Shown here piece after piece: positions 15,728 through 31,252 of a stretch of 64,000 nucleotides of DNA (position 1 is its first letter; each line of letters begins with the position of its first letter). The notes under the pieces are model-generated. The model saw only the letters and a list, made by a program, of their open reading frames with translations. It was not told the DNA's origin and searched no databases. The position numbers were made by a program, and so were the translations under genes. The DNA comes from Patescibacteria group bacterium (lineage in GTDB: Bacteria; Patescibacteriota; Minisyncoccia; Phycocordibacterales; Phycocordibacteraceae): positions 106,070 to 170,069 of the forward strand of contig JBBTSO010000005.1 in NCBI GenBank assembly GCA_038064695.1, in the 5' to 3' direction.

Positions 15728-18026
<2,299 letters not shown>

Positions 18027-18029
18027 ACA

Positions 18030-19583
18030 TTATAGAGAAGCGGTTTTCACAAAGGTATCCAAGGCGCTTTTGAGTGCTTGTTCTGATGATTCGCTGATGA
18101 GTCGATCCGTACGAATAGCGTTCAACACAGATTCGTGTTCTCGATCCATGTACGCCAAAAATTGTTTTTCAACCACGCCCATTTTTTCCGGTGGGAATGA
18201 ACCGAAGTGTCCGTTCGTTGCTCCGTAAATAACAACTACCTGCCGCTCAAATGCCATTGGTTCGTGTTTACCTTGGTTTAAAACCGCGCTCAACCGGCGA
18301 CCGATATCAATGCGTTTTTTAGTGTCTTCGTCCAAGTCAGACGCAAACTGCATAAAGGCCTCCAACTCTCTGAACTGCGCAAGGTCCAATTTAATACGCC
18401 CGGCAACTTTTTTCATTGCTTTTGTCTGTGCGGCACTCCCCACGCGAGATACTGAAATACCAACGTTAATAGCAGGACGACTCCCTTTGTTGAAGAGGTC
18501 AGCTTCAAGGAACATCTGTCCGTCGGTAATGGAAATAACGTTGGTAGGAATGTAGGCTGAAATGTCTCCTTCTTGTGTTTCAATTATAGGCAGCGCGGTC
18601 AGCGACCCTCCTCCTTTTTCTTTAGAGAGTTTTGCGGCACGCTCCAAGAGACGTGAGTGGAGGTAGAAAATGTCACCAGGGTACGCTTCACGTCCTGGCG
18701 GACGACGGAGCAACAATGAGAGTTGGCGATACGCCACTGCTTGTTTTGAAAGGTCGTCGTAAATAACTAATACATCCTTTCCTTTCTCCATAAAGTACTC
18801 GCCGAGCGTTACCCCTGCGTACGGAGCTAAGAATTGAAATGCCGCTGAGGAAGATGCAGGAGCGGTTACTACAATGGTGTACTCCATCGCGCCACGTTCA
18901 GTGAGAAGTGCCGTAATGCGTGCCGTCTTTGACTCTTTCTGACCAATGGCAACGTAAATACAAATCGGTCGCGTATCCTTTGGCTCATTTTTTTGGTTTA
19001 AAATCGCATCAATAGCTACTGTTGTTTTACCCGTCGCGCGGTCACCGATAATCAATTCACGTTGTCCGCGCCCGATTGGGATCAACGCGTCAATTGCTTT
19101 TGTTCCTGTATGAATAGGGGTATCAACGGGAGCACGGTCAATAACGCCGTACGCCTCGCGTTCAATGGGAGCGAAGCCCGATGCTTCAACCGGTCCTTTG
19201 CCGTCCACCGCTTCGCCGAGTGGGTTTACGATACGGCCTATAAATGCATCGCCAACTGGTATTGAAAGCAACTTTCCCGTACGGCGCACAATCATTCCCT
19301 CAACCACGCGCGAACCTTCTCCGAGAATGATGGCCTTCACGGTGTCTTCTTCCAAGTTCAAAATGAGTCCAAAAAGTTGTGTGTCATGCGTAAGCGCGTC
19401 TTTGACGGTGCTCACACTCGATTCATCAAAAACAATCATTTCTGCCATTTGCGCGCCGAAGAGACCTTCAATTTCAACAATACCGTCGCCCACTTTTCGC
19501 ACCACTCCCACCTCTTCACGCTCAGCTTTTGGTTGTAGCGTTTCTATTTCTTTCTTGAGCCGCTCTAAGATTGTTTTGTCCAT
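18030..19583 (-). CDS. atpA: F-type ATP synthase alpha subunit
   Basis: [20 protein letters not shown]-loop. 517 aa. Confidence 0.95.
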
Positions 19584-19586
19584 ACG

Positions 19587-19937
19587 TTATTGTTGAGTAA
19601 TTTTTTGATAAAGTGACACGAGCGTGCGACGATACGACGCGTCTATTAATGACCCTCCTTTTCTAACCACATATCCGCCCACAATGGAAGGGTCCACTTT
19701 TGTTTCCACCGTGCCTTCACCAAGGTGAAGCGCGTGAGGAACAAATTTTTTCCCTTCTTTTTCAGATGCCACCGTAAGCTGAATCTGATCGCTATCTGGG
19801 GTGCGTTCAATGATGCGTGCTACCTGAGGAAGCAGCGACTCGTGACCTCGCTTTTTCATATACGCAATAACCTCATCAATCTTCCCTCCTTCACGGAGCG
19901 GTGCGATGATTGTTGCATAGTAGTGAGCGAGTGACAT
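19587..19937 (-). CDS. atpH: F-type ATP synthase delta (OSCP) subunit, short form
   Basis: C-terminal VDPSIVGGYVVRKGGSLIDASYRRTL matches the delta C-terminal domain. Only 116 aa. Operon position between atpF and atpA. Confidence 0.7.
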   Translation of the reverse strand: MSLAHYYATIIAPLREGGKIDEVIAYMKKRGHESLLPQVARIIERTPDSDQIQLTVASEKEGKKFVPHALHLGEGTVETKVDPSIVGGYVVRKGGSLIDASYRRTLVSLYQKITQQ

Positions 19938-19940
19938 ACG

Positions 19941-20390
19941 TTATGCTATTTTTTCTTTAAGTATTTTTTCTGCGGCAAGAATGGCAACTTTCACCATTTC
20001 TTTTTCGCTTTCAGCTAATGCCGCGCGCTTCAACTCCTCAGCTTGCGTACGCGCTTCGCTTAGTACTCCCTCTGCTCGCTCCTGCGCGGTTTTTAGAATA
20101 TCGGTGCGCTGATTTTTTGCCTCGTTGACCGCGCGTTCAACCACTGCGCCTGCTTCTTTTTGTGCAGAAGTTAAAATGCCTGTTTTTTCCTGTTCAATGA
20201 CCGCGCGCGCTTCTGATGCTTCACGGGCATCATCTAACCCTTTTTTGAGCACCGCCTCACGCTCCGCTAACACGTGCATTAACGGCTTGTACAAGAAAAA
20301 AGTAAGTCCACCGAACACGATAAGGAAGTTAACTCCTTGTGCGATGAGTAGTTTCCAGTCAACACCGAAAGCGGCAAAAAGCTCCCCCAT
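19941..20390 (-). CDS. atpF: F-type ATP synthase subunit b
   Basis: Single N-terminal TM helix, then a long charged Ala/Glu/Lys-rich helix. Confidence 0.85.
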   Translation of the reverse strand: MGELFAAFGVDWKLLIAQGVNFLIVFGGLTFFLYKPLMHVLAEREAVLKKGLDDAREASEARAVIEQEKTGILTSAQKEAGAVVERAVNEAKNQRTDILKTAQERAEGVLSEARTQAEELKRAALAESEKEMVKVAILAAEKILKEKIA

Positions 20391-20397
20391 GCACTTT

Positions 20398-20658
<261 letters not shown>

Positions 20659-21411
20659 CTAATGCTCTCCGTGTGGGGTAACTGCAATTTTGATAAAGAA
20701 GAGTGTTAGAAGCGCAAATACGGCTCCTTGAATTACGCTCACAAATGCTTCGTATAAAACCAGTGGCACGGGGGCGATATACGGAACAAAGAAAAGTGCC
20801 AACAAGATTAATACTTTCCCCGCAAAAATATTTCCAAAGAGACGAAAGGAAAACGTAATGAGACGAGCCACCTCACTGATTAGCTCAATAATGCCTACAA
20901 TGAAGCCAATCACTGAAGTAAAATTAACAAATTTTGAAAAATATTTCAAGAATCCGAGTGCTGCAATACCAGCAAATTCAATAACAACGAAAGAAATAAT
21001 GGCGAGTGCTATCGGTGCATTTAGATCGGTGTTGACAGGGTACAAAAGAGGAATAAACCCATGGTGCGCTTCATCGTAGAAACCAAGTGCTCCAATAAAT
21101 GGGAAGAGTCCGAAAAGATTTGCTGCTGTAACATACACAAAAATGCTCATGATGATGGGAAAATACCTTCGCGCGAGTACATCATCTTCTAAAACTTCAC
21201 GTACGTAGTTGTAAACACCAAGCACCACTTCCTCGACTGCCAACTGTCCTTTTGAAGGCGCAACTTTTAAATTTCTACCTATAAAGAAAGCAGCGACAAG
21301 GAGTAAAACTACCACCACCGAACTAGAAATTAACGTTGGGGTAATGGGAAAACCCCAGAGATCCCCGAGGTGGTACGGGGCAATAGAAATATGCAGACTT
21401 TCTGCAGCCAT
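20659..21411 (-). CDS. atpB: F-type ATP synthase subunit a
   Basis: Polytopic, with conserved Arg in the C-terminal helix region (ARLITFSFRLFGNIFAG). First gene of the operon. Confidence 0.9.
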   Translation of the reverse strand: MAAESLHISIAPYHLGDLWGFPITPTLISSSVVVVLLLVAAFFIGRNLKVAPSKGQLAVEEVVLGVYNYVREVLEDDVLARRYFPIIMSIFVYVTAANLFGLFPFIGALGFYDEAHHGFIPLLYPVNTDLNAPIALAIISFVVIEFAGIAALGFLKYFSKFVNFTSVIGFIVGIIELISEVARLITFSFRLFGNIFAGKVLILLALFFVPYIAPVPLVLYEAFVSVIQGAVFALLTLFFIKIAVTPHGEH

Positions 21412-26434: not shown

Positions 26435-26540
26435 AAAAATATACCCAAAGTATACACGGTATTTTTAAATTCTATGGAATTGCGAATTTAAATAGGTACG
26501 ATATACTATTCGTACCTCAAAAAGGTACAATAATTTGCAT

Positions 26541-26613
26541 GGGCCCTTAGCTCATTTGGTAGAGCGCCTCATTTGCACTGAGGAGGCGGGGGGTTCGAAT
26601 CCTCTAGGGTCCA
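26541..26613 (+). tRNA. tRNA-Ala (anticodon UGC)
   Basis: Cloverleaf folded by hand: acceptor GGGCCCT/AGGGTCC (one G-U), D arm GCTC-ATTTGGTA-GAGC, anticodon stem CCTCA/TGAGG with loop TTTGCAC, T arm GGGGG-TTCGAAT-CCTCT, discriminator A. No encoded CCA. Confidence 0.9.
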
Positions 26614-26616
26614 CAA
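26599..26616 (+). repeat. 18-nt direct repeat copy 1 (= 3-prime end of tRNA-Ala, ATCCTCTAGGGTCCACAA)
   Basis: Identical 18-mer recurs at 26772-26789, 173 nt downstream. Confidence 0.8.
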
Positions 26617-26627
26617 CATAAAAATTG

Positions 26628-26652
26628 CCCAGCTCATGCTGGGTTATTTTTA
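26628..26652 (+). terminator. intrinsic terminator hairpin CCCAGC-tcat-GCTGGG + T-run after tRNA-Ala
   Basis: Read directly. Confidence 0.55.
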
Positions 26653-26705
26653 TGGCGGTTGAGTGTGGGAGGATTCGAAAACCGGAAGCGCGACGGCGCT
26701 GAGGT

Positions 26706-26744
26706 GGGGTCGCAAAAATTTTTAGCAAAAAATTATTAGTGACC
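26706..26744. repeat. GGGGTCGC-AT-rich-GTGACC unit, copy 1
   Basis: ggggtcgcaaaaatttttagcaaaaaattattagtgacc. Near-identical unit at 26887-26927 (181-nt period). Confidence 0.6.
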
Positions 26745-26771
26745 GATGCGTGCTGAGCGAAGCGATGACAC

Positions 26772-26789
26772 ATCCTCTAGGGTCCACAA
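26772..26789 (+). repeat. 18-nt direct repeat copy 2 (displaced duplicate of tRNA-Ala 3-prime end; att-like)
   Basis: ATCCTCTAGGGTCCACAA identical to 26599-26616. Followed by a second hairpin+T-run (ATCCCGC-ctg-GCGGGAT at 26801-26829). Confidence 0.8.
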
Positions 26790-26886
26790 AAGACAGAAAC
26801 ATCCCGCCTGCGCGGGATTTTCTGCTTTTGTGGAAGGCACAGGTATATTTTTCTTTGAACGAAGTGAGAGGGAAAAATACCGAGCC

Positions 26887-26927
26887 GGGGTCGCGGAAAA
26901 TTTCTGTCAAGAAATTTATTTGTGACC
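26887..26927. repeat. GGGGTCGC-AT-rich-GTGACC unit, copy 2
   Basis: ggggtcgcggaaaatttctgtcaagaaatttatttgtgacc. Preceded by ataccgagccgggg, which carries the CCGAGC core of the dispersed repeat family. Confidence 0.6.
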
Positions 26928-26941
26928 ACCTTTTGCTTGTT

Positions 26942-27100
26942 TTAAGCGTTATTTAACACGTGCTCAATAAACTCAGGCATTGAAACCCCTACTGCCGCGA
27001 GGGACTTCGGAAGAAGTGAATTTTCAGTGAGACCAGGGAGTGTATTCACTTCCAAAAAGTAAATACCTCGGGGGGATACAATAAAATCACTGCGCCCTCG
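26942..27100 (-). pseudogene. displaced, diverged duplicate of the ddl 3-prime end (last approx. 47 codons), preceded by an in-frame stop
   Basis: Own translation: ...RSDFIVSPRGIYFLEVNTLPGLTENSLLPKSLAAVGVSMPEFIEHVLNNA*. Intact ddl at 30281-30450 reads YSRSDFIVSPRGIYFLEVNTLPDLRDISLFSVALGSVGVNMSEFIEHILKLVYEK*. A 49-nt stretch (27043-27091) is identical to 30381-30429; the flanks are about 60 percent identical. Confidence 0.75.
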
Positions 27101-27149
27101 TTCAGGTACCAACGATTATACCTCAACCTTTTTTAGCGCAAGCAACTGC

Positions 27150-27162: not shown

Positions 27163-27831
27163 GTGTCTACTATTATTGTTCTTCATGGATGGAAACATAG
27201 TCTTGCTTCGTGGGAAGAATTTCGAATGCAGTTTCCCGTTGATACCGTTATCACTTTTGATTTACCAGGATTTGGCGACGAACCACTACATCTAGGGTGG
27301 GGCGTACCAGAATATGCTGGATGGGTTAAAGAGAAAATTGCTCCGTATACGTCTAAAGGTCCAGTTATTCTCCTCGGACACTCTTTTGGAGGAAGAATCG
27401 CTGCATACATTGCTATCCAACAACCACCATGGCTCGAGCGCCTCATTCTTTATGGCGCACCTCTTATCTACCAACCAACAATATGGGTGCGCTTCCGGGC
27501 AGGGATTGCAAAAAAAATAAAAGCTTTTATACCTTTTAAAAAATACATTCTCAACGTGCTCTTTCCTGAAAGCCACAAACCCGAGTACTACAAAATATTT
27601 AAAAAAATTGCTACGTTTGATTTAAAAAATGAATTACAACACATCACCGTACCAACTTTATTTGTATGGGGTGACAATGACACCGAAGCTCCACTCCGTC
27701 TTGGTCGGATAGCGGCAAAACTCATTCCGCAGAGTTTAATGGTAATATTGCCAAAATCGGGTCACAATATACACATCGACTCACCGTATCTATTCTATGG
27801 CGTTGTTAAAAAATTTATTGAGGGTAACTAA
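27163..27831 (+). CDS. alpha/beta-fold hydrolase
   Basis: IIVLHGW oxyanion-strand start and nucleophile elbow GHSFGG. Likely GTG start; 222 aa. Substrate unknown. Confidence 0.75.
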   Translation: MSTIIVLHGWKHSLASWEEFRMQFPVDTVITFDLPGFGDEPLHLGWGVPEYAGWVKEKIAPYTSKGPVILLGHSFGGRIAAYIAIQQPPWLERLILYGAPLIYQPTIWVRFRAGIAKKIKAFIPFKKYILNVLFPESHKPEYYKIFKKIATFDLKNELQHITVPTLFVWGDNDTEAPLRLGRIAAKLIPQSLMVILPKSGHNIHIDSPYLFYGVVKKFIEGN

Positions 27832-29155
27832 TTTTATTTTTCCTTTCGTAGATTTTTGCTATATTCTTCAATTAGAAGAATATAGCACAAGGCGCTACTT
27901 AGTTGCGTTAAAAAAATTCCTTTTCAGACGAAATCTCCAACAACGCCAACGACTTGTCTTAACACAACGAATAAAATTAACCTTGTTTCTGAGCGTTGCT
28001 ATGTATCTTGGAATTCTGACTAGTATTTATATCTTTACATCTGGAACAACTGCTCTTGTGTCCTACTTAGGAACTACAATACTAATTCCCTTAATCGTTG
28101 CTTTAGCAGATACAGTTATTACACCTGGTACATACCTTTTAAAGAAACGGATTAGAGCGTCTGCGCAACGTAAGCTTAAAAACTATAAAAACATTGTCAC
28201 TATCGTAATCGCTGGCAGTCATGGCAAATCGACAACAAAGACGTTTTTGTACGAACTACTACGATACCACTACAACACCAAGATGGCTCTGAGAAATATT
28301 AATACGCCAATGGGTATTGCTGATTGGATAAACAAAGAATTGCATGGCGGGGTGGATATTTTGATAGCAGAAATTGATACGTATTGGGTAGGAGAAATTA
28401 CTGATTCATGTCATATGCTTCGGCCCCGTCATGCGATCGTAACATCACTAGGCGAACAACATCTTGTTCGATTTAAAAACCAAGAAGAATTGCATCAAGC
28501 GCTACTTGAGACATTCACCTGTACCACAATAGATGGTTTGAAATTGGCACCACGAGAACTGAAAAATAATCTAGAGAAAAAAGGTTTAAATGACATCATA
28601 TATGTGGATGATATTCCGTACTACGCAGGGAGAAAGATAGAAACTCCGCAACTTTCTGAGACACAAAAAAAAGATCTCTCTTTGGCGCTTCGTATGGCAG
28701 AGGAATTTAGTATTCCAGAACATATAGTGGTCGATATTTGCTCGAAACTTACACCGCCTGATCGCAGGCAGGTTCAAAGCAAAATGCACGGCTTTGAAGT
28801 TGTTGATGATTCATACAATATTAGTTTTGAAACCGCACAAAAAGGTATCACCAGAGCGGCTGAGCTTGCAAAAGAAAAAAACAAAAAACTACTGATAGTA
28901 ACTGCGGGTATTCCTGAGCTGGGAAAAGAGAACGCGCAAGCGAATACCAAACTGGGGCAACAGATGGCTATCACAGCAAATTACATCGCTATATTGAAAT
29001 CTGACTTTCACAAAGCAATAATCGAAGGTATACCAAAAAAGAGTAGCTATTCTCTATACCCTTCTATTGACGATTTCTGGCTCGCTACTGAGTCATTCCC
29101 CAAGGACGAGTGGTTAATTCTTGTACAACCAGAACTAACTGATTTATATTATTGA
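27797..29155 (+). CDS. membrane-anchored Mur-ligase-family protein, MurF-like (UDP-MurNAc-peptide ligase family)
   Basis: Two N-terminal TM helices, then Mur ligase P-loop VIAGSHGKSTTKTF, central-domain acidic/His residues, and the C-terminal VVDDSYNISFE (MurF-type IDDSYNANP). Confidence 0.7.
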   Translation: MALLKNLLRVTNFIFPFVDFCYILQLEEYSTRRYLVALKKFLFRRNLQQRQRLVLTQRIKLTLFLSVAMYLGILTSIYIFTSGTTALVSYLGTTILIPLIVALADTVITPGTYLLKKRIRASAQRKLKNYKNIVTIVIAGSHGKSTTKTFLYELLRYHYNTKMALRNINTPMGIADWINKELHGGVDILIAEIDTYWVGEITDSCHMLRPRHAIVTSLGEQHLVRFKNQEELHQALLETFTCTTIDGLKLAPRELKNNLEKKGLNDIIYVDDIPYYAGRKIETPQLSETQKKDLSLALRMAEEFSIPEHIVVDICSKLTPPDRRQVQSKMHGFEVVDDSYNISFETAQKGITRAAELAKEKNKKLLIVTAGIPELGKENAQANTKLGQQMAITANYIAILKSDFHKAIIEGIPKKSSYSLYPSIDDFWLATESFPKDEWLILVQPELTDLYY

Positions 29156-30291
29156 TCAATAAATTTTTCTACAATTGAAGAGTCATAGTCAAGCCTCTGT
29201 GCGTCAAATTCCACCTGTCGTTGTCGAGCATTTTCGATGAGTAAACTGAATTGTTGTGTATATGGTTCACCTGTAGCCTCCCAGAGATAGAAAGCGAGTG
29301 ACCCGGGGATGGAATTTACTTCGGTCAAATAAAGCACGCGGTCCTTAGTGTACATAAAGTCAATACGCACCATCTGACTCTGTCGAGTGGCTCGAAATAC
29401 CTTTTTGGCTGTTTCTTGAATTTCTGATCGCAAAGATTCAGAAATATCAGCAGGAAGCTCTCGATTGAGTGAAGCCATGCCTTGTTGTGCTGTTTTTTTG
29501 CCACCTTTTTCGTACTTTTCCGCAAAACTGAGAAATGCTTCTTTTGAAAGAGGGCGTTCAATCTCGCTTGTCTCAATAACTCCGTTATTTTCTCTCACTG
29601 AACAGTTGTATTCAACAAAGTCTGTAAGTAGGGTTTCAACCAGTATCTCATTATCTACATGCGAGGCTTTTAAAAGAGCTTTTTCAAGTTCAATTTTTGA
29701 GTGTGCGATATCTAGTCCAATTGACGACCCCAGATGAACTGGTTTAACGATGAGATCATCGCCTAGCGTACGACAACACTTTTCAACAATCTCCTGAGTG
29801 TTTTTACGAATTTCTACTGAGGTGAATGACAAACCTGGTACAGTTCTCACTCCTTCTTGAGAAGCTAAATTTTTAGTAATCTGTTTATTGAGTGCTATTA
29901 CGGAACCTTCGATTGAAGGAGATGAATGGGCAATGTTACATGTCTCAAGTAATCCTTGCACTTTTCCACCCTCGCCACCTCCTCCATGAAAAGCCAATAA
30001 TGCTGCATAAGGATAAATGCTTTTTGAAAAAAAACCATTAGTACGCACAAACCCTCCATGTTGGTTTTTTCCAAAAGAAACTGAGACACGTTTGTTTTTT
30101 AAAAATCCTTTTCGAGATTTTAACTTTGGCAAATAATAAAAATCGTTTTCTTTTGAAATATAAATAACGTGCGGAGTATAAACTTCTGTGTCTAAGGCTT
30201 CTAGAGCCTGCAATCCAGTCACGACAGACACCTCGTGTTCGGGTGAAGTTCCCCCAAACATAAGTAATATAGGTTTTCTTTCACTTTTCAT
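29149..30291 (-). CDS. ATP-grasp ligase of the D-Ala-D-Ala ligase family (second, divergent copy)
   Basis: Ddl-like N-terminus ILLMFGGTSPEHEVSVVTG and an ATP-grasp C-terminal half (YTKDRVLYLTEVNSIPG). 380 aa, highly diverged from the adjacent ddl. Confidence 0.7.
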   Translation of the reverse strand: MKSERKPILLMFGGTSPEHEVSVVTGLQALEALDTEVYTPHVIYISKENDFYYLPKLKSRKGFLKNKRVSVSFGKNQHGGFVRTNGFFSKSIYPYAALLAFHGGGGEGGKVQGLLETCNIAHSSPSIEGSVIALNKQITKNLASQEGVRTVPGLSFTSVEIRKNTQEIVEKCCRTLGDDLIVKPVHLGSSIGLDIAHSKIELEKALLKASHVDNEILVETLLTDFVEYNCSVRENNGVIETSEIERPLSKEAFLSFAEKYEKGGKKTAQQGMASLNRELPADISESLRSEIQETAKKVFRATRQSQMVRIDFMYTKDRVLYLTEVNSIPGSLAFYLWEATGEPYTQQFSLLIENARQRQVEFDAQRLDYDSSIVEKFIDQ

Positions 30292-31252
30292 ACACGAGTT
30301 TCAGAATGTGCTCAATAAATTCACTCATATTAACACCGACAGACCCTAATGCTACTGAAAATAGTGAAATGTCTCTTAGGTCGGGCAGAGTATTCACTTC
30401 CAAAAAGTAAATACCTCGGGGGGATACAATAAAATCACTACGCGAGTAATGTCTGAGCCCCAAAGCGCTATGCGATACCGCGGCGAGCGACTTTAACTCC
30501 GCACTTTCACGATCAGAAAACGACCCTGGACAACGCTCTATGGTGCGCGGGTTGTATTTTGTTTCGTAATCAAAAAACGTGCTTTGTGCTGGTAAGACAA
30601 TTTCAACGGGGGGCAAGCGGTAAACGGGCTCTCCACGAAGTCCCTCAACCACGCCCACCGTTGCTTCTTTTCCTGGAATGTATTCCTCTATCAAAATTTG
30701 AGGAGAAAACTGGAATGCGTTTTTTACTCCCGTTTGAAATTCAAAGAAGTTCTTTGCGAGTGTTACACCCACTGAAGAACCCGCACTCACCGGCTTAATA
30801 ACTGAGGGTTGCGGAAAATGCCGAAACGCATGTAGTATTTCACGATCAAGGGTGTCAGAAACTGAAAGCGTTATTCCGTAGGGAGTTTTTACCCCCATAC
30901 TCTCTAGCGTTTTTTTAGTAAGCACTTTATTCATCGCAACAGATGAAGCGTACGTGCGACTGCCGGTGTACGGAACACCTATGCGCTCTAGTACGCGCTG
31001 AACACCTCCGTCTTCCCCATACTCACCATGAAGCGCATTCCACACGACATCAACTCCCGTTAAACTTTTCTCAGGGGACGCAGGAACGCCACGAACAAAC
31101 CACTCACCCCCTTTATCAATAAAAATGTCTCGCGTTTTGTACTGCTCCGAAAATGAATGCGCTAACTGTTGCAGTACCGCGGCACCTGTTTTTAACGAAA
31201 CATCATGTTCCGCTCCCACTCCTCCGCGAATAACGGCGACAGTTTTTTGCAT
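30281..31252 (-). CDS. ddl: D-alanine--D-alanine ligase
   Basis: VAVIRGGVGAEHDVSLKTG, EEYIPGKE and SRSDFIVSPRGIYFLEVNTLPDL. 323 aa. Confidence 0.9.
   Translation of the reverse strand: MQKTVAVIRGGVGAEHDVSLKTGAAVLQQLAHSFSEQYKTRDIFIDKGGEWFVRGVPASPEKSLTGVDVVWNALHGEYGEDGGVQRVLERIGVPYTGSRTYASSVAMNKVLTKKTLESMGVKTPYGITLSVSDTLDREILHAFRHFPQPSVIKPVSAGSSVGVTLAKNFFEFQTGVKNAFQFSPQILIEEYIPGKEATVGVVEGLRGEPVYRLPPVEIVLPAQSTFFDYETKYNPRTIERCPGSFSDRESAELKSLAAVSHSALGLRHYSRSDFIVSPRGIYFLEVNTLPDLRDISLFSVALGSVGVNMSEFIEHILKLVYEK

Follow-up and report, generated by a model that had tools for sequence, protein, structure and literature searches.

Small gene-less units behind Patescibacteria tRNA genes share a covarying fold closed by inverted and direct copies of the tRNA 3′ end

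Integrative elements that target tRNA genes, together with CIMEs, are bounded by a direct repeat of the tRNA 3′ segment that starts in the T-loop; they leave the tRNA intact, can accrete in tandem, and differ in number among relatives at a given tRNA. The stretch from the T-loop to the 3′ end is reportedly among the classic crossover sites of integrases that target tRNA genes. These properties are shared by the units described here, which lie behind the tRNA-Ala gene of a 64-kb stretch of Patescibacteria DNA (the window, meaning the whole of that stretch) and behind tRNA genes in other genomes. The units differ from integrative elements and CIMEs in being 130 to 190 nt long, gene-less, and without an integrase nearby, in carrying that tRNA segment a further time inside, in inverted orientation, and in having as their interior a conserved, covarying fold, with the same core present at many tRNAs between ends tailored to each. 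A further comparison is provided by the tRNA-like domain of tmRNA, the YrlA Y-RNA-like RNAs, the MALAT1 mascRNA, and the viral 3′ TLS, in which, as in the intact members of the present family, a helix reproduces the acceptor (and T) stem plus the 3′ tail; such a helix would make the units plausible substrates of RNase P, 3′ trimming, and the CCA-adding enzyme, and their position right behind a tRNA resembles that of tRNA-linked processing units. Unlike these RNAs, the units copy the specific neighboring tRNA rather than a generic or alanine-type end, and they replace the T-loop by a three-hairpin core of 110 to 140 nt that has no D-loop or T-loop mimic. They match no Rfam family, and tmRNA or permuted tmRNA was excluded, with none detected by ARAGORN.

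Mobile DNA that folds as a single strand, namely the CTX attP, integron attC sites, and the IS200/IS605 ends with their PATE and REP derivatives, also has hairpins that are conserved and strand-specific while their stems vary, non-autonomous copies devoid of genes, and, in a model weighed below, a folded stem that would imitate the target duplex. For the units, in contrast, a tRNA T-loop would take the place of dif, attI, or a tetranucleotide as the target, the repeats are 15 to 21 nt long and specific to each tRNA, no sequence similarity was found, and no Xer, IntI, or HUH partner was found in the 64-kb window. MITEs are likewise small, non-coding, and present in multiple copies with terminal inverted repeats (here X′/X, defined below), whereas the inverted repeats of the units vary between copies, each pair being equal to the end of the tRNA beside it, the copies have diverged and are not near-identical, insertion occurs strictly at tRNA genes, and the interior is conserved and covaries. 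The junction at T-loop position 58/59 and the complementarity of the intervening sequence to the flanking tRNA segment recall the archaeal non-canonical tRNA introns (including those at 58/59 and 59/60) and the split or permuted tRNA genes; unlike those cases, the tRNA here is complete upstream, the host is bacterial, no bulge-helix-bulge motif is evident, and the insert is far larger. TIGR-Tas arrays (PMC12045711) were set aside as unrelated in architecture. The group I introns of Patescibacteria tRNAs occupy the anticodon loop and are much larger than these units (PMC13011429), and such an intron was excluded in the window, where the tRNA-Ala gene is uninterrupted.

An intact member of the family has the fixed order tRNA - Y - X′ - P1/P2/P3 core - X, in which X is a direct copy of the tRNA from nt 59 (in the T-loop) to the 3′ end, X′ is the reverse complement of the neighboring tRNA's own nt 54 to the 3′ end, and Y is a hairpin. 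The window contains the following features.

26480-26507, predicted tRNA-Ala promoter TTGCGA-16-TATACT (promoter scan).
26541-26613/4, + strand, tRNA-Ala(UGC) gene (ARAGORN; Rfam RF00005, 63 bits).
26599-26616, + strand, X(proximal), tRNA nt 59-73 plus CAA, the first copy of the 18-mer.
26617-26654, + strand, Y, a palindromic terminator-like hairpin made of an A-run, a GC stem (26627-26644), and a T-run.
26664-26679, + strand, X′ plus TCGAA (TGTGG-GAGGAT-TCGAA), an inverted copy of tRNA nt 54-76 (11/11 inverted repeat).
26681-26705, + strand, P1, a 3-bp base, a GA-rich internal loop, and the hairpin AGCGC-GACG-GCGCT (26687-26700) (RNAalifold, pair counts, MFE fold).
26708-26744, + strand, P2, the first GGTCGC..GTGACC module (RNAalifold, pair counts, MFE fold).
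26745-26771, + strand, a 5-nt joiner, GAUGC, followed by P3 (GUGC..hairpin..GACAC), helices 6-7 (RNAalifold, pair counts).
26772-26789, + strand, X(distal), the second copy of the 18-mer and 3′ strand of the closing helix P0.
26783-26834, + strand, terminator-like palindrome 2, CCACAAAAG..CTTTTGTGG, with a GC stem at 26801-26818.
26821-26930, + strand, unit B, a decayed second copy (match to covariance model R1 at 26821-26975, 36 bits, E = 1e-6).
26942-27112, - strand, displaced 3′ fragment of a D-Ala-D-Ala ligase (ddl) gene (ending ..RSDFIVSPRGIYFLEVNTLPGLTENSLLPKSLAAVGVSMPEFIEHVLNNA and stop), outside the element.

The tRNA-Ala(UGC) gene has G3:U70 and does not encode CCA, and its promoter block, GGAATTGCGAATTTA..GGTACGATATACTA, is common to the window and the relative L113. 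An earlier note on this DNA had reported that the last 18 nt of the tRNA recur 173 nt downstream. The 18-mer, ATCCTCTAGGGTCCACAA, indeed has exactly two copies in the 64-kb window (26599-26616 and 26772-26789, spacing 173 nt) and is thus not a frequent sequence there; no third copy was found in the window even with three mismatches permitted. This recurrence is non-random, the chance expectation being 0.02, with two matches seen in 0 of 100 shuffles. The other sequence features described in that note were also recovered and are likewise non-random. Each 18-mer copy is followed by a hairpin and T-run (26627-26644 and 26801-26818), both with 7 pairs, 5 of them GC, and a T-rich tail, terminator-like by match to the intrinsic-terminator consensus only; a terminator scan of this 1 kb gave 7 terminator-like sites versus 1.2 expected. 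The inverted T-arm-like fragment of the first unit is a perfect 11/11 inverted repeat (TTCGAATCCTC at 26594-26604 versus GAGGATTCGAA, a T-loop fragment, at 26669-26679). The GGTCGC..GTGACC modules occur in both units and nowhere else in the window, GGGTCGC-N-GTGACC matching only 26707-26744 and 26888-26927 (chance expectation 0.01); with two copies only in 64 kb, a dispersed genome repeat or operator was excluded.

Unit A (26659-26788) scored 116 bits (E = 7e-28) against R1, a covariance model built in this analysis, and its single-sequence MFE fold is the consensus fold. X′, found in every intact family member, forms the 5′ strand of P0 and is paired with 26772-26788 in the MFE fold; because X′ pairs with X as a helix, the 18-mer repeat contributes one strand to the structure of the element and is no passive att scar. 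Y has its homolog in L007, where the corresponding hairpin follows tRNA-Ala, and together with X and X′ it can form one long hairpin (26594-26682, -44.3 kcal/mol, z = -8.4), of which X(proximal) is the outer portion of the left arm. Within the core, the base of P1 (ACC at 26681-83 and GGT at 26703-05) covaries in the family between GCC/GGC and GAC/GTC, and P1 (helices 3-4) was paired in 96-100% in pair counts. The base stem of P2 (helix 5), GGUCGC/GUGACC, includes one G.U pair that is invariant in 16/16 copies and is extended by a variable AT-rich portion with an AGCA loop; compensatory changes were present at 10 of the 16 pairs of P2. Both GATGCGTGC and GACAC were invariant in alignment A2 (10 intact copies).

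X(distal) ends as the tRNA does, with discriminator A plus CAA, and it is identical to the tRNA even where X′ has drifted, an identity that gene conversion or recent insertion would explain as well as function. In the window, X′ has 6 nt deleted opposite T65-U70, and P0 consists of 6 bp and 5 bp with a 6-nt bulge (T65-U70) between them. Because the acceptor half of X′ is deleted or imperfect here, as in the other tRNA-Ala copies, the minihelix mimic is incomplete in the window, and unit A may be heading toward decay. The units hold no real gene, being overlapped only by mechanical ORFs of 62-73 aa. The earlier description of them as tiny, gene-less, and tied to duplication of the tRNA 3′ end is supported.

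Unit B retains P1 (26836-26886) and P2 (26887-26929 as folded, corresponding to the second module) and is devoid of X′, the third hairpin P3, and the distal X. Its fold was calculated at -38.9 kcal/mol (z = -4.4) on the + strand versus -23.7 kcal/mol on the - strand. Units A and B align across ∼150 nt at 64% identity; by alignment, unit B is the counterpart of unit 1 of L012, and palindrome 2 resembles the hairpin directly after tRNA-Ala in L012/L104. The earlier note proposed a tandem att-like duplication, but the window has a single such duplication and no tandem pair: unit A is flanked by an 18/18 repeat, and no tRNA-end repeat follows unit B. What follows unit B directly is the ddl fragment. 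In relatives, ddl directly adjoins tRNA-Ala, and the fragment marks the former ddl/tRNA-Ala junction, prior to the insertion of a 3.3 kb cassette.

In other Patescibacteria and in metagenomes, at least 10 tRNA isoacceptors have the same core immediately on their 3′ side, in a family sampled via patterns derived from the window's own sequence. A search with GGGGTCGC-N20-45-GTGRCCGATGCGTGC, a pattern that includes no tRNA-derived sequence, returned 14 metagenome loci, 10 of them real. A tRNA immediately precedes nine of these 10 (Ala-TGC, Arg-TCT, Gly-TCC, Gly-GCC, Ser-GCT, Ser-GGA, Glu-CTC at two loci that are identical, and one tRNA truncated by the end of its contig); upstream of the tenth, L096, there is a tRNA-end fragment only and no intact tRNA. 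More members are located behind Arg-CCG of L007 and a tRNA of L021, divergent and weakly scoring copies behind Arg-CCG of L012 and His of L025, and a core-like sequence, recognized by pattern only, behind Leu of L025. In each intact member, X′ and X match that member's own tRNA, as illustrated by L094 (GCGGGGT-AGGAG-AATCGAA...GACAC-TT-CTCCT-GCCCCGC-ACA). The X′:X helix, ∼12-14 bp and acceptor plus T-stem-like, closes a four-way junction and keeps the discriminator and 3′ tail of the neighboring tRNA; intact members such as L094, L092, L103, and L007-Arg have a continuous minihelix of ∼12 bp. The flanks of hairpin Y, CAAAAATAATGA..TTATATTTTTGTAG, recur behind three different tRNAs, so Y is part of the element. 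Unit size is uniform (130-190 nt). Approximately 16 of the ∼48 distinct tRNA genes examined have their own 3′ end (≥13 nt) repeated within 200 nt downstream, and most tRNA genes in these genomes are without an element. Where one contig holds more than one copy, the copies have diverged and differ in core type, and nothing points to a recent burst.

When a plain MAFFT alignment of 10 copies was analyzed by RNAalifold, P0, P1, P2, and P3 were all recovered and 28 of 42 pairs were compensatory. Across 16 copies, 92.2% of cells were paired versus 37-45% with slid partners, and double changes occurred at 31 of 42 pairs, values reached in 0 of 500 shuffles; alignment A3 was fitted to the model, which inflates these pair counts, and the MAFFT/RNAalifold result is the independent check. 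The compensatory changes support a common fold, as in a conserved structured RNA; the fold may form in RNA, in single-stranded DNA, or in both. Where X′ departs from perfect complementarity (L021, L092, L094, L103, and the window), the change is A>G or C>T, which gives G.U pairs only on the tRNA-sense strand, and the + strand folds are more stable than those of the - strand by 7-15 kcal/mol. The possibility that X′ is a copy of tRNA 5′ strands, left from a deleted tRNA duplicate, was excluded because the G.U positions in L100 (X′ GACCCTA versus tRNA 5′ strand GGCCCTA) and L092 (X′ CCAGG versus tRNA CTAGG) follow the reverse complement of the 3′ strand, and because X′ bears the T-loop complement.

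The number of units at tRNA-Ala differs among relatives. An empty site, which the earlier note had thought worth seeking in related genomes, exists in L113, where tRNA-Ala is followed by a terminator and then by the ddl stop, with a promoter as in the window and a tRNA sequence as in L106/L111. One unit is present in L007-9, L106, and L111, and a decayed one in L112; the window and L012/L090/L104 have two. Since related genomes possess 0, 1, or 2 units at the same tRNA-Ala, units have been gained and lost. No polymorphism was found among the near-identical strains L001-L005, in which the region is 100% identical. Two short low-coverage contigs end within the region.

Known elements and partner enzymes were sought by several approaches. 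Rfam 15 (E ≤ 10) returned only tRNA for the window region and three related loci, all other hits having E > 0.1 and scores far below gathering. By blastn, no match indicating a phage or plasmid origin was obtained in 50,697 phage or 72,556 plasmid records. Three scans of IMG/VR gave no hit, or chance hits in GC-rich coding DNA only, and the IMG/VR loci from a 15-mer scan (755 kb) yielded 0 covariance-model hits. Pfam scans of the large ORFs of the 64-kb window, with the ATP-synthase genes (15728-21411) assigned instead from precomputed Pfam hits, detected no recombinase, integrase, transposase, or reverse transcriptase. Among 20 flanking ORFs at 8 other loci (two or three each), the sole recombinase-type hit was an rve/DDE transposase at L100. 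The copies share no common TIR or short TSD that we could find. A tRNA-primed retroelement, considered by analogy with an 18-nt PBS since the repeat begins after A58, was excluded because the genomic tail is ACAA/ACAAA rather than mature CCA and because reverse transcriptase is absent from the window. A literature search of limited range returned no earlier description, and the elements apparently constitute an undescribed family of small, structured, gene-less units 3′ of Patescibacteria tRNA genes.

We favor, with modest confidence, a model in which the region holds two copies, unit A nearly intact and unit B decayed, of a tRNA-linked structured RNA that has tRNA-mimicking ends and spreads among tRNA genes. 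The element would be transcribed on the tRNA strand, mostly by read-through of a leaky hairpin Y, a route that we propose because the space available would hardly, if at all, accommodate a separate promoter. No convincing promoter was found by eye between Y and X′, and Y resembles a real intrinsic terminator, so transcription of the element relies on the assumed read-through. The minihelix-like end would then allow tRNA end-processing (by RNase P, 3′ trimming, and CCA addition) to act on the transcript, which would release a stable cloverleaf-like RNA, and new tRNA genes would be colonized by re-copying the 3′ end of the target tRNA in both orientations. More tentatively, and with greater doubt than conviction, we suggest that the units represent a new element class, self-folding gene-less "tRNA-end mimics" that spread by templating inverted and direct copies of the host tRNA 3′ end; the minihelix might be a ticket into tRNA maturation (RNase P, CCA addition, perhaps aminoacylation) or a nucleic-acid guide for insertion at T-loop position 58/59 without an element-encoded protein.

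Much of the arrangement would also follow if the fold were a DNA recombination substrate and not an RNA, that is, if the units were non-autonomous mobile elements of folded single-stranded DNA mobilized in trans, which we regard as the main rival reading, if a rather unlikely one. A small circle (X - Y - X′ - core), in which X′:X mimics the duplex of the tRNA gene 3′ end, would be opened where the core meets X and would enter the tRNA gene between nt 58 and 59 of the T-loop, in a manner likened to the folded attP of CTX phage, integron attC sites, and IS200/IS605-type hairpin ends; the insert in the window would be 26599-26771 (173 nt). This model gives the exact observed order, tRNA(1-58) - X - Y - X′ - core - X - original terminator. 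It also accounts for the start of the repeat always at nt 59, for the conservation of Y behind different tRNAs, and for the resemblance of the distal X, terminator 2, and unit B of the window to the native tRNA end, terminator, and unit 1 of L012; the empty and filled sites and the strand-specific fold are consistent with it. However, no HUH or tyrosine recombinase was found in the window and none was consistently associated with the other copies, the diverged same-contig copies of different core types lack the signature of recent bursts, and the G.T wobbles and the invariant G.U are more typical of RNA. Each tRNA would, moreover, need its own X/X′ pair, which is hard to reconcile with a protein-recognized site unless the ends are re-templated at every move. 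The extreme stability of the T-loop-to-X′ hairpin speaks instead for a fixed, non-mobile cis device, in which X′, Y, and the tRNA 3′ half (26594-26682) would form an alternative structure controlling termination, 3′ processing, or stability of the tRNA, or would serve as a DUF1003 leader (L007, L012). In L007, L012, and L104 the units do lie between tRNA-Ala and DUF1003, all co-directional, and the sharing of tRNA-Ala units by several related lineages suggests long residence. We nevertheless consider such a device improbable: in the window, L111, and L113, the tRNA block and DUF1003 are in inverted relative orientation, and element copies elsewhere have unrelated neighbor genes, so the element is not the leader of a particular gene and a DUF1003 leader or promoter was excluded. 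Most tRNA genes, including an identical tRNA-Ala gene, do without the element, and the three-hairpin core and distal X would be left unexplained.

The earlier note had taken the locus for a classic site-specific integration scar, or for remnants nested by repeated integration and excision, which would make the repeats attL/attR-type traces of integrase islands or phages and the DNA between them a decayed island. A repeat spanning the T-loop to the tRNA 3′ end and a unit number that differs among relatives fit this reading, which is nonetheless strongly disfavored and, in our judgment, very improbable. The module, the inverted fragment, and the second 18-mer turn out to be helices P2 and P0 of one fold, and this conserved, covarying fold is found again behind at least 10 other tRNAs, in each case with ends that match the tRNA concerned. 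The inverted copy of the tRNA end is always present, whereas integrase att sites have none; the sizes are uniformly 130-190 nt, unlike decayed kilobase islands; the search for an integrase found none in 64 kb; and there is no similarity to the phage, plasmid, or viral contigs searched. A plain local duplication, in tandem, of the sequence flanking the tRNA on its 3′ side, with later drift, ordinary paralogy, and ordinary terminators, would suit the alignment of units A and B and the two units of L012. It is contradicted by the family and the covariation and appears to us scarcely credible, because it leaves unexplained X′, the exact 18-mer in units of only 64% overall identity, and the same covarying core behind unrelated tRNAs elsewhere.

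Standard island-finding tools would mis-score these repeats as att sites of prophages or islands. If the reading of the units as a family of tRNA-end-imitating elements is true, the minimal-genome Patescibacteria give space behind about one third of their sampled tRNA genes to folded elements that imitate tRNA ends. The units would then represent either a new tRNA-linked non-coding RNA family that uses tRNA mimicry for processing or function or a new route by which a protein-less mobile element chooses and safely occupies tRNA genes. Either outcome would bear on tRNA genes as integration hot-spots, on tRNA mimicry, and on the meaning of the abundant "partial tRNA" repeats in the genomes of uncultivated bacteria.

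The tRNA-Ala(UGC) gene of the window is followed by a nearly intact element copy (unit A) and a decayed second copy (unit B). The earlier note had described a repeated tRNA 3' end (an 18-mer), a hairpin with T-run after each copy, two modules and an inverted T-arm-like fragment in the first unit, and all of these were recovered:

26541-26613/4, plus strand: tRNA-Ala(UGC) gene, called by ARAGORN and Rfam
26627-26644: terminator-like hairpin and T-run, 3' of the first ATCCTCTAGGGTCCACAA copy
26669-26679: GAGGATTCGAA in unit A, an inverted T-loop/T-stem copy matching at 11/11 positions
26707-26744 and 26888-26927: the modules, GGGTCGC..GTGACC, found in the window only here
26772-26789: second exact copy of ATCCTCTAGGGTCCACAA (last 15 nt of tRNA-Ala plus CAA), 173 nt downstream
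26801-26818: terminator-like hairpin and T-run, 3' of the second ATCCTCTAGGGTCCACAA copy

No third copy of ATCCTCTAGGGTCCACAA was found in the 64 kb with 3 mismatches allowed (chance expectation, 0.02). The locus holds one att-like duplication rather than the tandem one that had been proposed. The region is 100% identical in four other assemblies from the same population. Two short independent assemblies of that population (contigs L004 and L005) end inside the tRNA (∼26569) and in helix P2 of unit A (∼26721); these breaks could be induced by a repeat or a polymorphism, or may mean nothing, as coverage is very low.

The order of parts was invariant: the tRNA, a palindromic terminator-like hairpin (Y), an inverted copy of the tRNA end (X'), the core, and a direct copy of the tRNA end (X). 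Three different tRNAs are followed by a Y with conserved flanks, CAAAAATAATGA..TTATATTTTTGTAG, and Y is therefore part of the element. X' is the reverse complement of the tRNA from nt 54 to the 3' end, and X copies nt 59 to the discriminator plus 1 to 3 nt, with CCA included where it is tRNA-encoded. The core runs from (A)GCCGGAG through helix P1, (C)GAGGCGGGGTCGC, P2, GTGACC-GATGCGTGC and P3 to GACAC. An origin of X' as a copy of tRNA 5' strands was ruled out because G.U positions follow the complement (GACCCTA versus GGCCCTA in the 5' strand at L100, and CCAGG versus CTAGG at L092) and the T-loop complement is also present. The tRNA lies just 19 nt from X' in metagenome locus L094.

Alignment of 10 intact copies with MAFFT and RNAalifold yielded a four-way junction, with compensatory changes in 28/42 pairs:

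P0: X' paired with X, 12 bp, corresponding to an acceptor stem plus T-stem
P1: 3-bp base, covarying between GCC/GGC and GAC/GTC
P2: base GGUCGC/GUGACC, followed by a 5-nt joiner, GAUGC
P3: directly abuts P0

The features that had been listed as separate are thus present but belong to one fold, in which the module corresponds to P2, and the inverted fragment and the second 18-mer form the 5' and 3' strands of P0, respectively. A covariance model of the element (R1) matched the window exactly twice, at unit A (26659-26788; 116 bits, E = 7e-28) and unit B (26821-26975; 36 bits, E = 1e-6). In an alignment of 16 copies that was fitted to the model, and for which the 10-copy analysis serves as the independent check, 92.2% of cells were paired compared to 37-45% with slid partners, and double changes occurred in 31/42 pairs; the observed values were reached by 0/500 shuffles. 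The minimum free energy fold of unit A alone recovers the consensus. Folds of the plus strand exceed those of the minus strand in stability by 7-15 kcal/mol, and drift in X' (A>G, C>T) is compatible with pairing on the tRNA-sense strand only. The conserved fold is strand-specific, and its closing helix copies the acceptor/T-stem and 3' tail of the adjacent tRNA. One G.U pair at the P2 base (window 26712:26740, alignment columns 85:152) is invariant in 16/16 copies; its neighbors are Watson-Crick pairs that are invariant or nearly so, and the pairs higher in the stem covary. This G.U could be a site for recognition or metal binding. P0 of the window comprises 6 bp and 5 bp separated by a 6-nt bulge (T65-U70), which marks unit A as a slightly degenerate member, and unit B retains only P1 and P2. 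Ala-linked elements have a deletion in the strand that faces U70 of the copied acceptor stem (window 26664-26674, 6 nt; L106 ∼255-268, 1 nt), which leaves U70 bulged, not paired, in both; with two cases only, this may be chance.

The same core, flanked by inverted and direct copies of the tRNA-Arg 3' end, follows tRNA-Arg(CCG) in the relatives L007 and L012. A JGI metagenome scan with a core-only pattern, GGGGTCGC-N20-45-GTGRCCGATGCGTGC, returned 14 loci, 4 of them chance matches in GC-rich coding DNA. Nine of the 10 real loci lie immediately 3' of a tRNA, and the tenth (L096) has a tRNA-end fragment upstream with no intact tRNA. The tRNAs of the nine were as follows:

Ala
Arg-TCT
Gly-TCC and Gly-GCC
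Ser-GCT and Ser-GGA
Glu-CTC (two identical loci)
one tRNA cut by the contig end

Among the ∼48 distinct tRNA genes on fetched loci, ∼16 are followed within 200 nt by a second copy of 13 nt or more of their own 3' end. Other or shorter cores at L011 (Arg), L022 (Pro and Gly), L035 (Ala) and L092 (Val) indicate that the phenomenon is broader than one core type, and the window's family is one of several. These inserts span 90-190 nt, mostly of the inverted-plus-direct design, with different or far shorter cores:

L022, 1026-1250 and 397-660 (reverse complement)
L035, 3669-3850 (reverse complement)
L011, 173-420
L092, 1579-1830 (reverse complement)

A type lacking P3 also exists, in which the repeat begins at T-loop nt 57.

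Related contigs were gathered with the neighboring DUF1003 protein as query. In relatives, tRNA-Ala is usually accompanied by DUF1003 and, directly adjoining, the D-Ala-D-Ala ligase gene (ddl). L007-9, L106 and L111 each have one GGGGTCGC..GTGACC module and L012/L090/L104 have two, and L112 carries a decayed unit at tRNA-Ala without the module. L113, with a DUF1003 protein 82% identical to that of the window, the same divergent orientation and a shared tRNA promoter block (GGAATTGCGAATTTA..GGTACGATATACTA), has nothing but a terminator separating tRNA-Ala from the stop codon of ddl and hence represents the empty site that the earlier note had sought. Relatives therefore carry 0, 1 or 2 units at this tRNA, in agreement with the proposal of miniature, gene-less units of variable number tied to the tRNA end. 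L106 and L111 share the tRNA-Ala sequence of L113, yet have one unit and a 19-21 nt tRNA-end repeat. In every case the repeat agrees with the tRNA at its own locus, including lineages whose tRNA-Ala sequences differ from one another. The tRNA-Ala-plus-element block (window 26435-26945) is co-directional with ddl/DUF1003 in L007, L012, L104 and L112 and inverted in the window, L011, L111 and L113; it was thus inverted at least once.

Upstream of tRNA-Ala, L111 (3755-3930), L106 (60-132) and L011 (1-120) have 2-3 tandem ∼100-nt units, each ending with the leader and the initial 9-11 nt of the tRNA (TCGGGCGCGTA), and some contain a hairpin closed by acceptor-stem sequence (GGGCGCG..CGCGCCC). These units are the 5'-end counterpart of the 3'-end duplications.

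Unit B adjoins a displaced ddl 3' fragment (26942-27112, minus strand). Over its first ∼60 nt (27036-27095) the fragment shows 95% identity with 30383-30443 of the intact ddl gene (323 aa), and its tail has diverged. The segment separating the copies (27163-30291) encodes an alpha/beta hydrolase, a Mur-ligase-like protein and a second Ddl of 380 aa. All three are missing from this interval in every relative that shows it (L007-9, L012, L104 and L113), and L111 has only an ORF of 91 aa at that place. The arrangement suggests that a cell-wall gene cassette of ∼3.3 kb entered by recombination inside the 3' end of ddl and supplied a replacement for the end of the gene.

The element matched no Rfam family and showed no similarity to phage and plasmid records or IMG/VR; ARAGORN detected no tmRNA, and R1 gave 0 matches in 755 kb of viral loci from a 15-mer scan, used as a negative control. 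Among the large ORFs of the window that were scanned, none was recognized as an integrase, transposase or reverse transcriptase; the ATP-synthase genes, outside that scan, were assigned from precomputed Pfam hits. At eight other element loci, 20 flanking ORFs (two or three each) were housekeeping genes except for one recombinase-type gene, in L100; it encodes an rve-domain (DDE) transposase (661-1755) and is separated by 160 nt from the tRNA-Glu-linked element upstream. The group I introns in patescibacterial tRNAs (PMC13011429) and TIGR arrays (PMC12045711) differ from these elements.

The element is tied to tRNA genes of many specificities, is gained or lost at an orthologous site, and has no associated gene. 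The best explanation, which we consider somewhat probable, involves an RNA from the tRNA strand, tRNA-end processing through P0, and colonization with re-templated X' and X. The RNA would be made mostly by read-through of Y, and tRNA end-processing enzymes would cut it free and mature its ends by way of the minihelix-like P0. In the colonization of further tRNA genes, X' and X would be templated anew on the target, possibly through a small circle (X-Y-X'-core) that is cut at core|X and inserted into the T-loop at 58|59. Such an insertion yields the observed order of parts exactly. In the window, the inserted piece would be 26599-26771, and the distal X, second terminator and unit B would be an older, displaced native end, which agrees with the similarity of these parts to the tRNA end, terminator and unit 1 of L012.

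The main rival, a version in which the circle intermediate is folded single-stranded DNA, seems to us possible though doubtful. A fixed cis-regulatory device fits the data poorly and is improbable. Classical integrase scars or island remnants, as the earlier note had proposed, are very unlikely in view of the conserved fold, the inverted tRNA-end copy, the many tRNAs and the lack of a recognized integrase among the scanned large ORFs of the window; plain tandem duplication also fits poorly and is scarcely credible. A literature search found no earlier description of such elements, and these folded mimics of tRNA ends in Patescibacteria appear to constitute an undescribed family.
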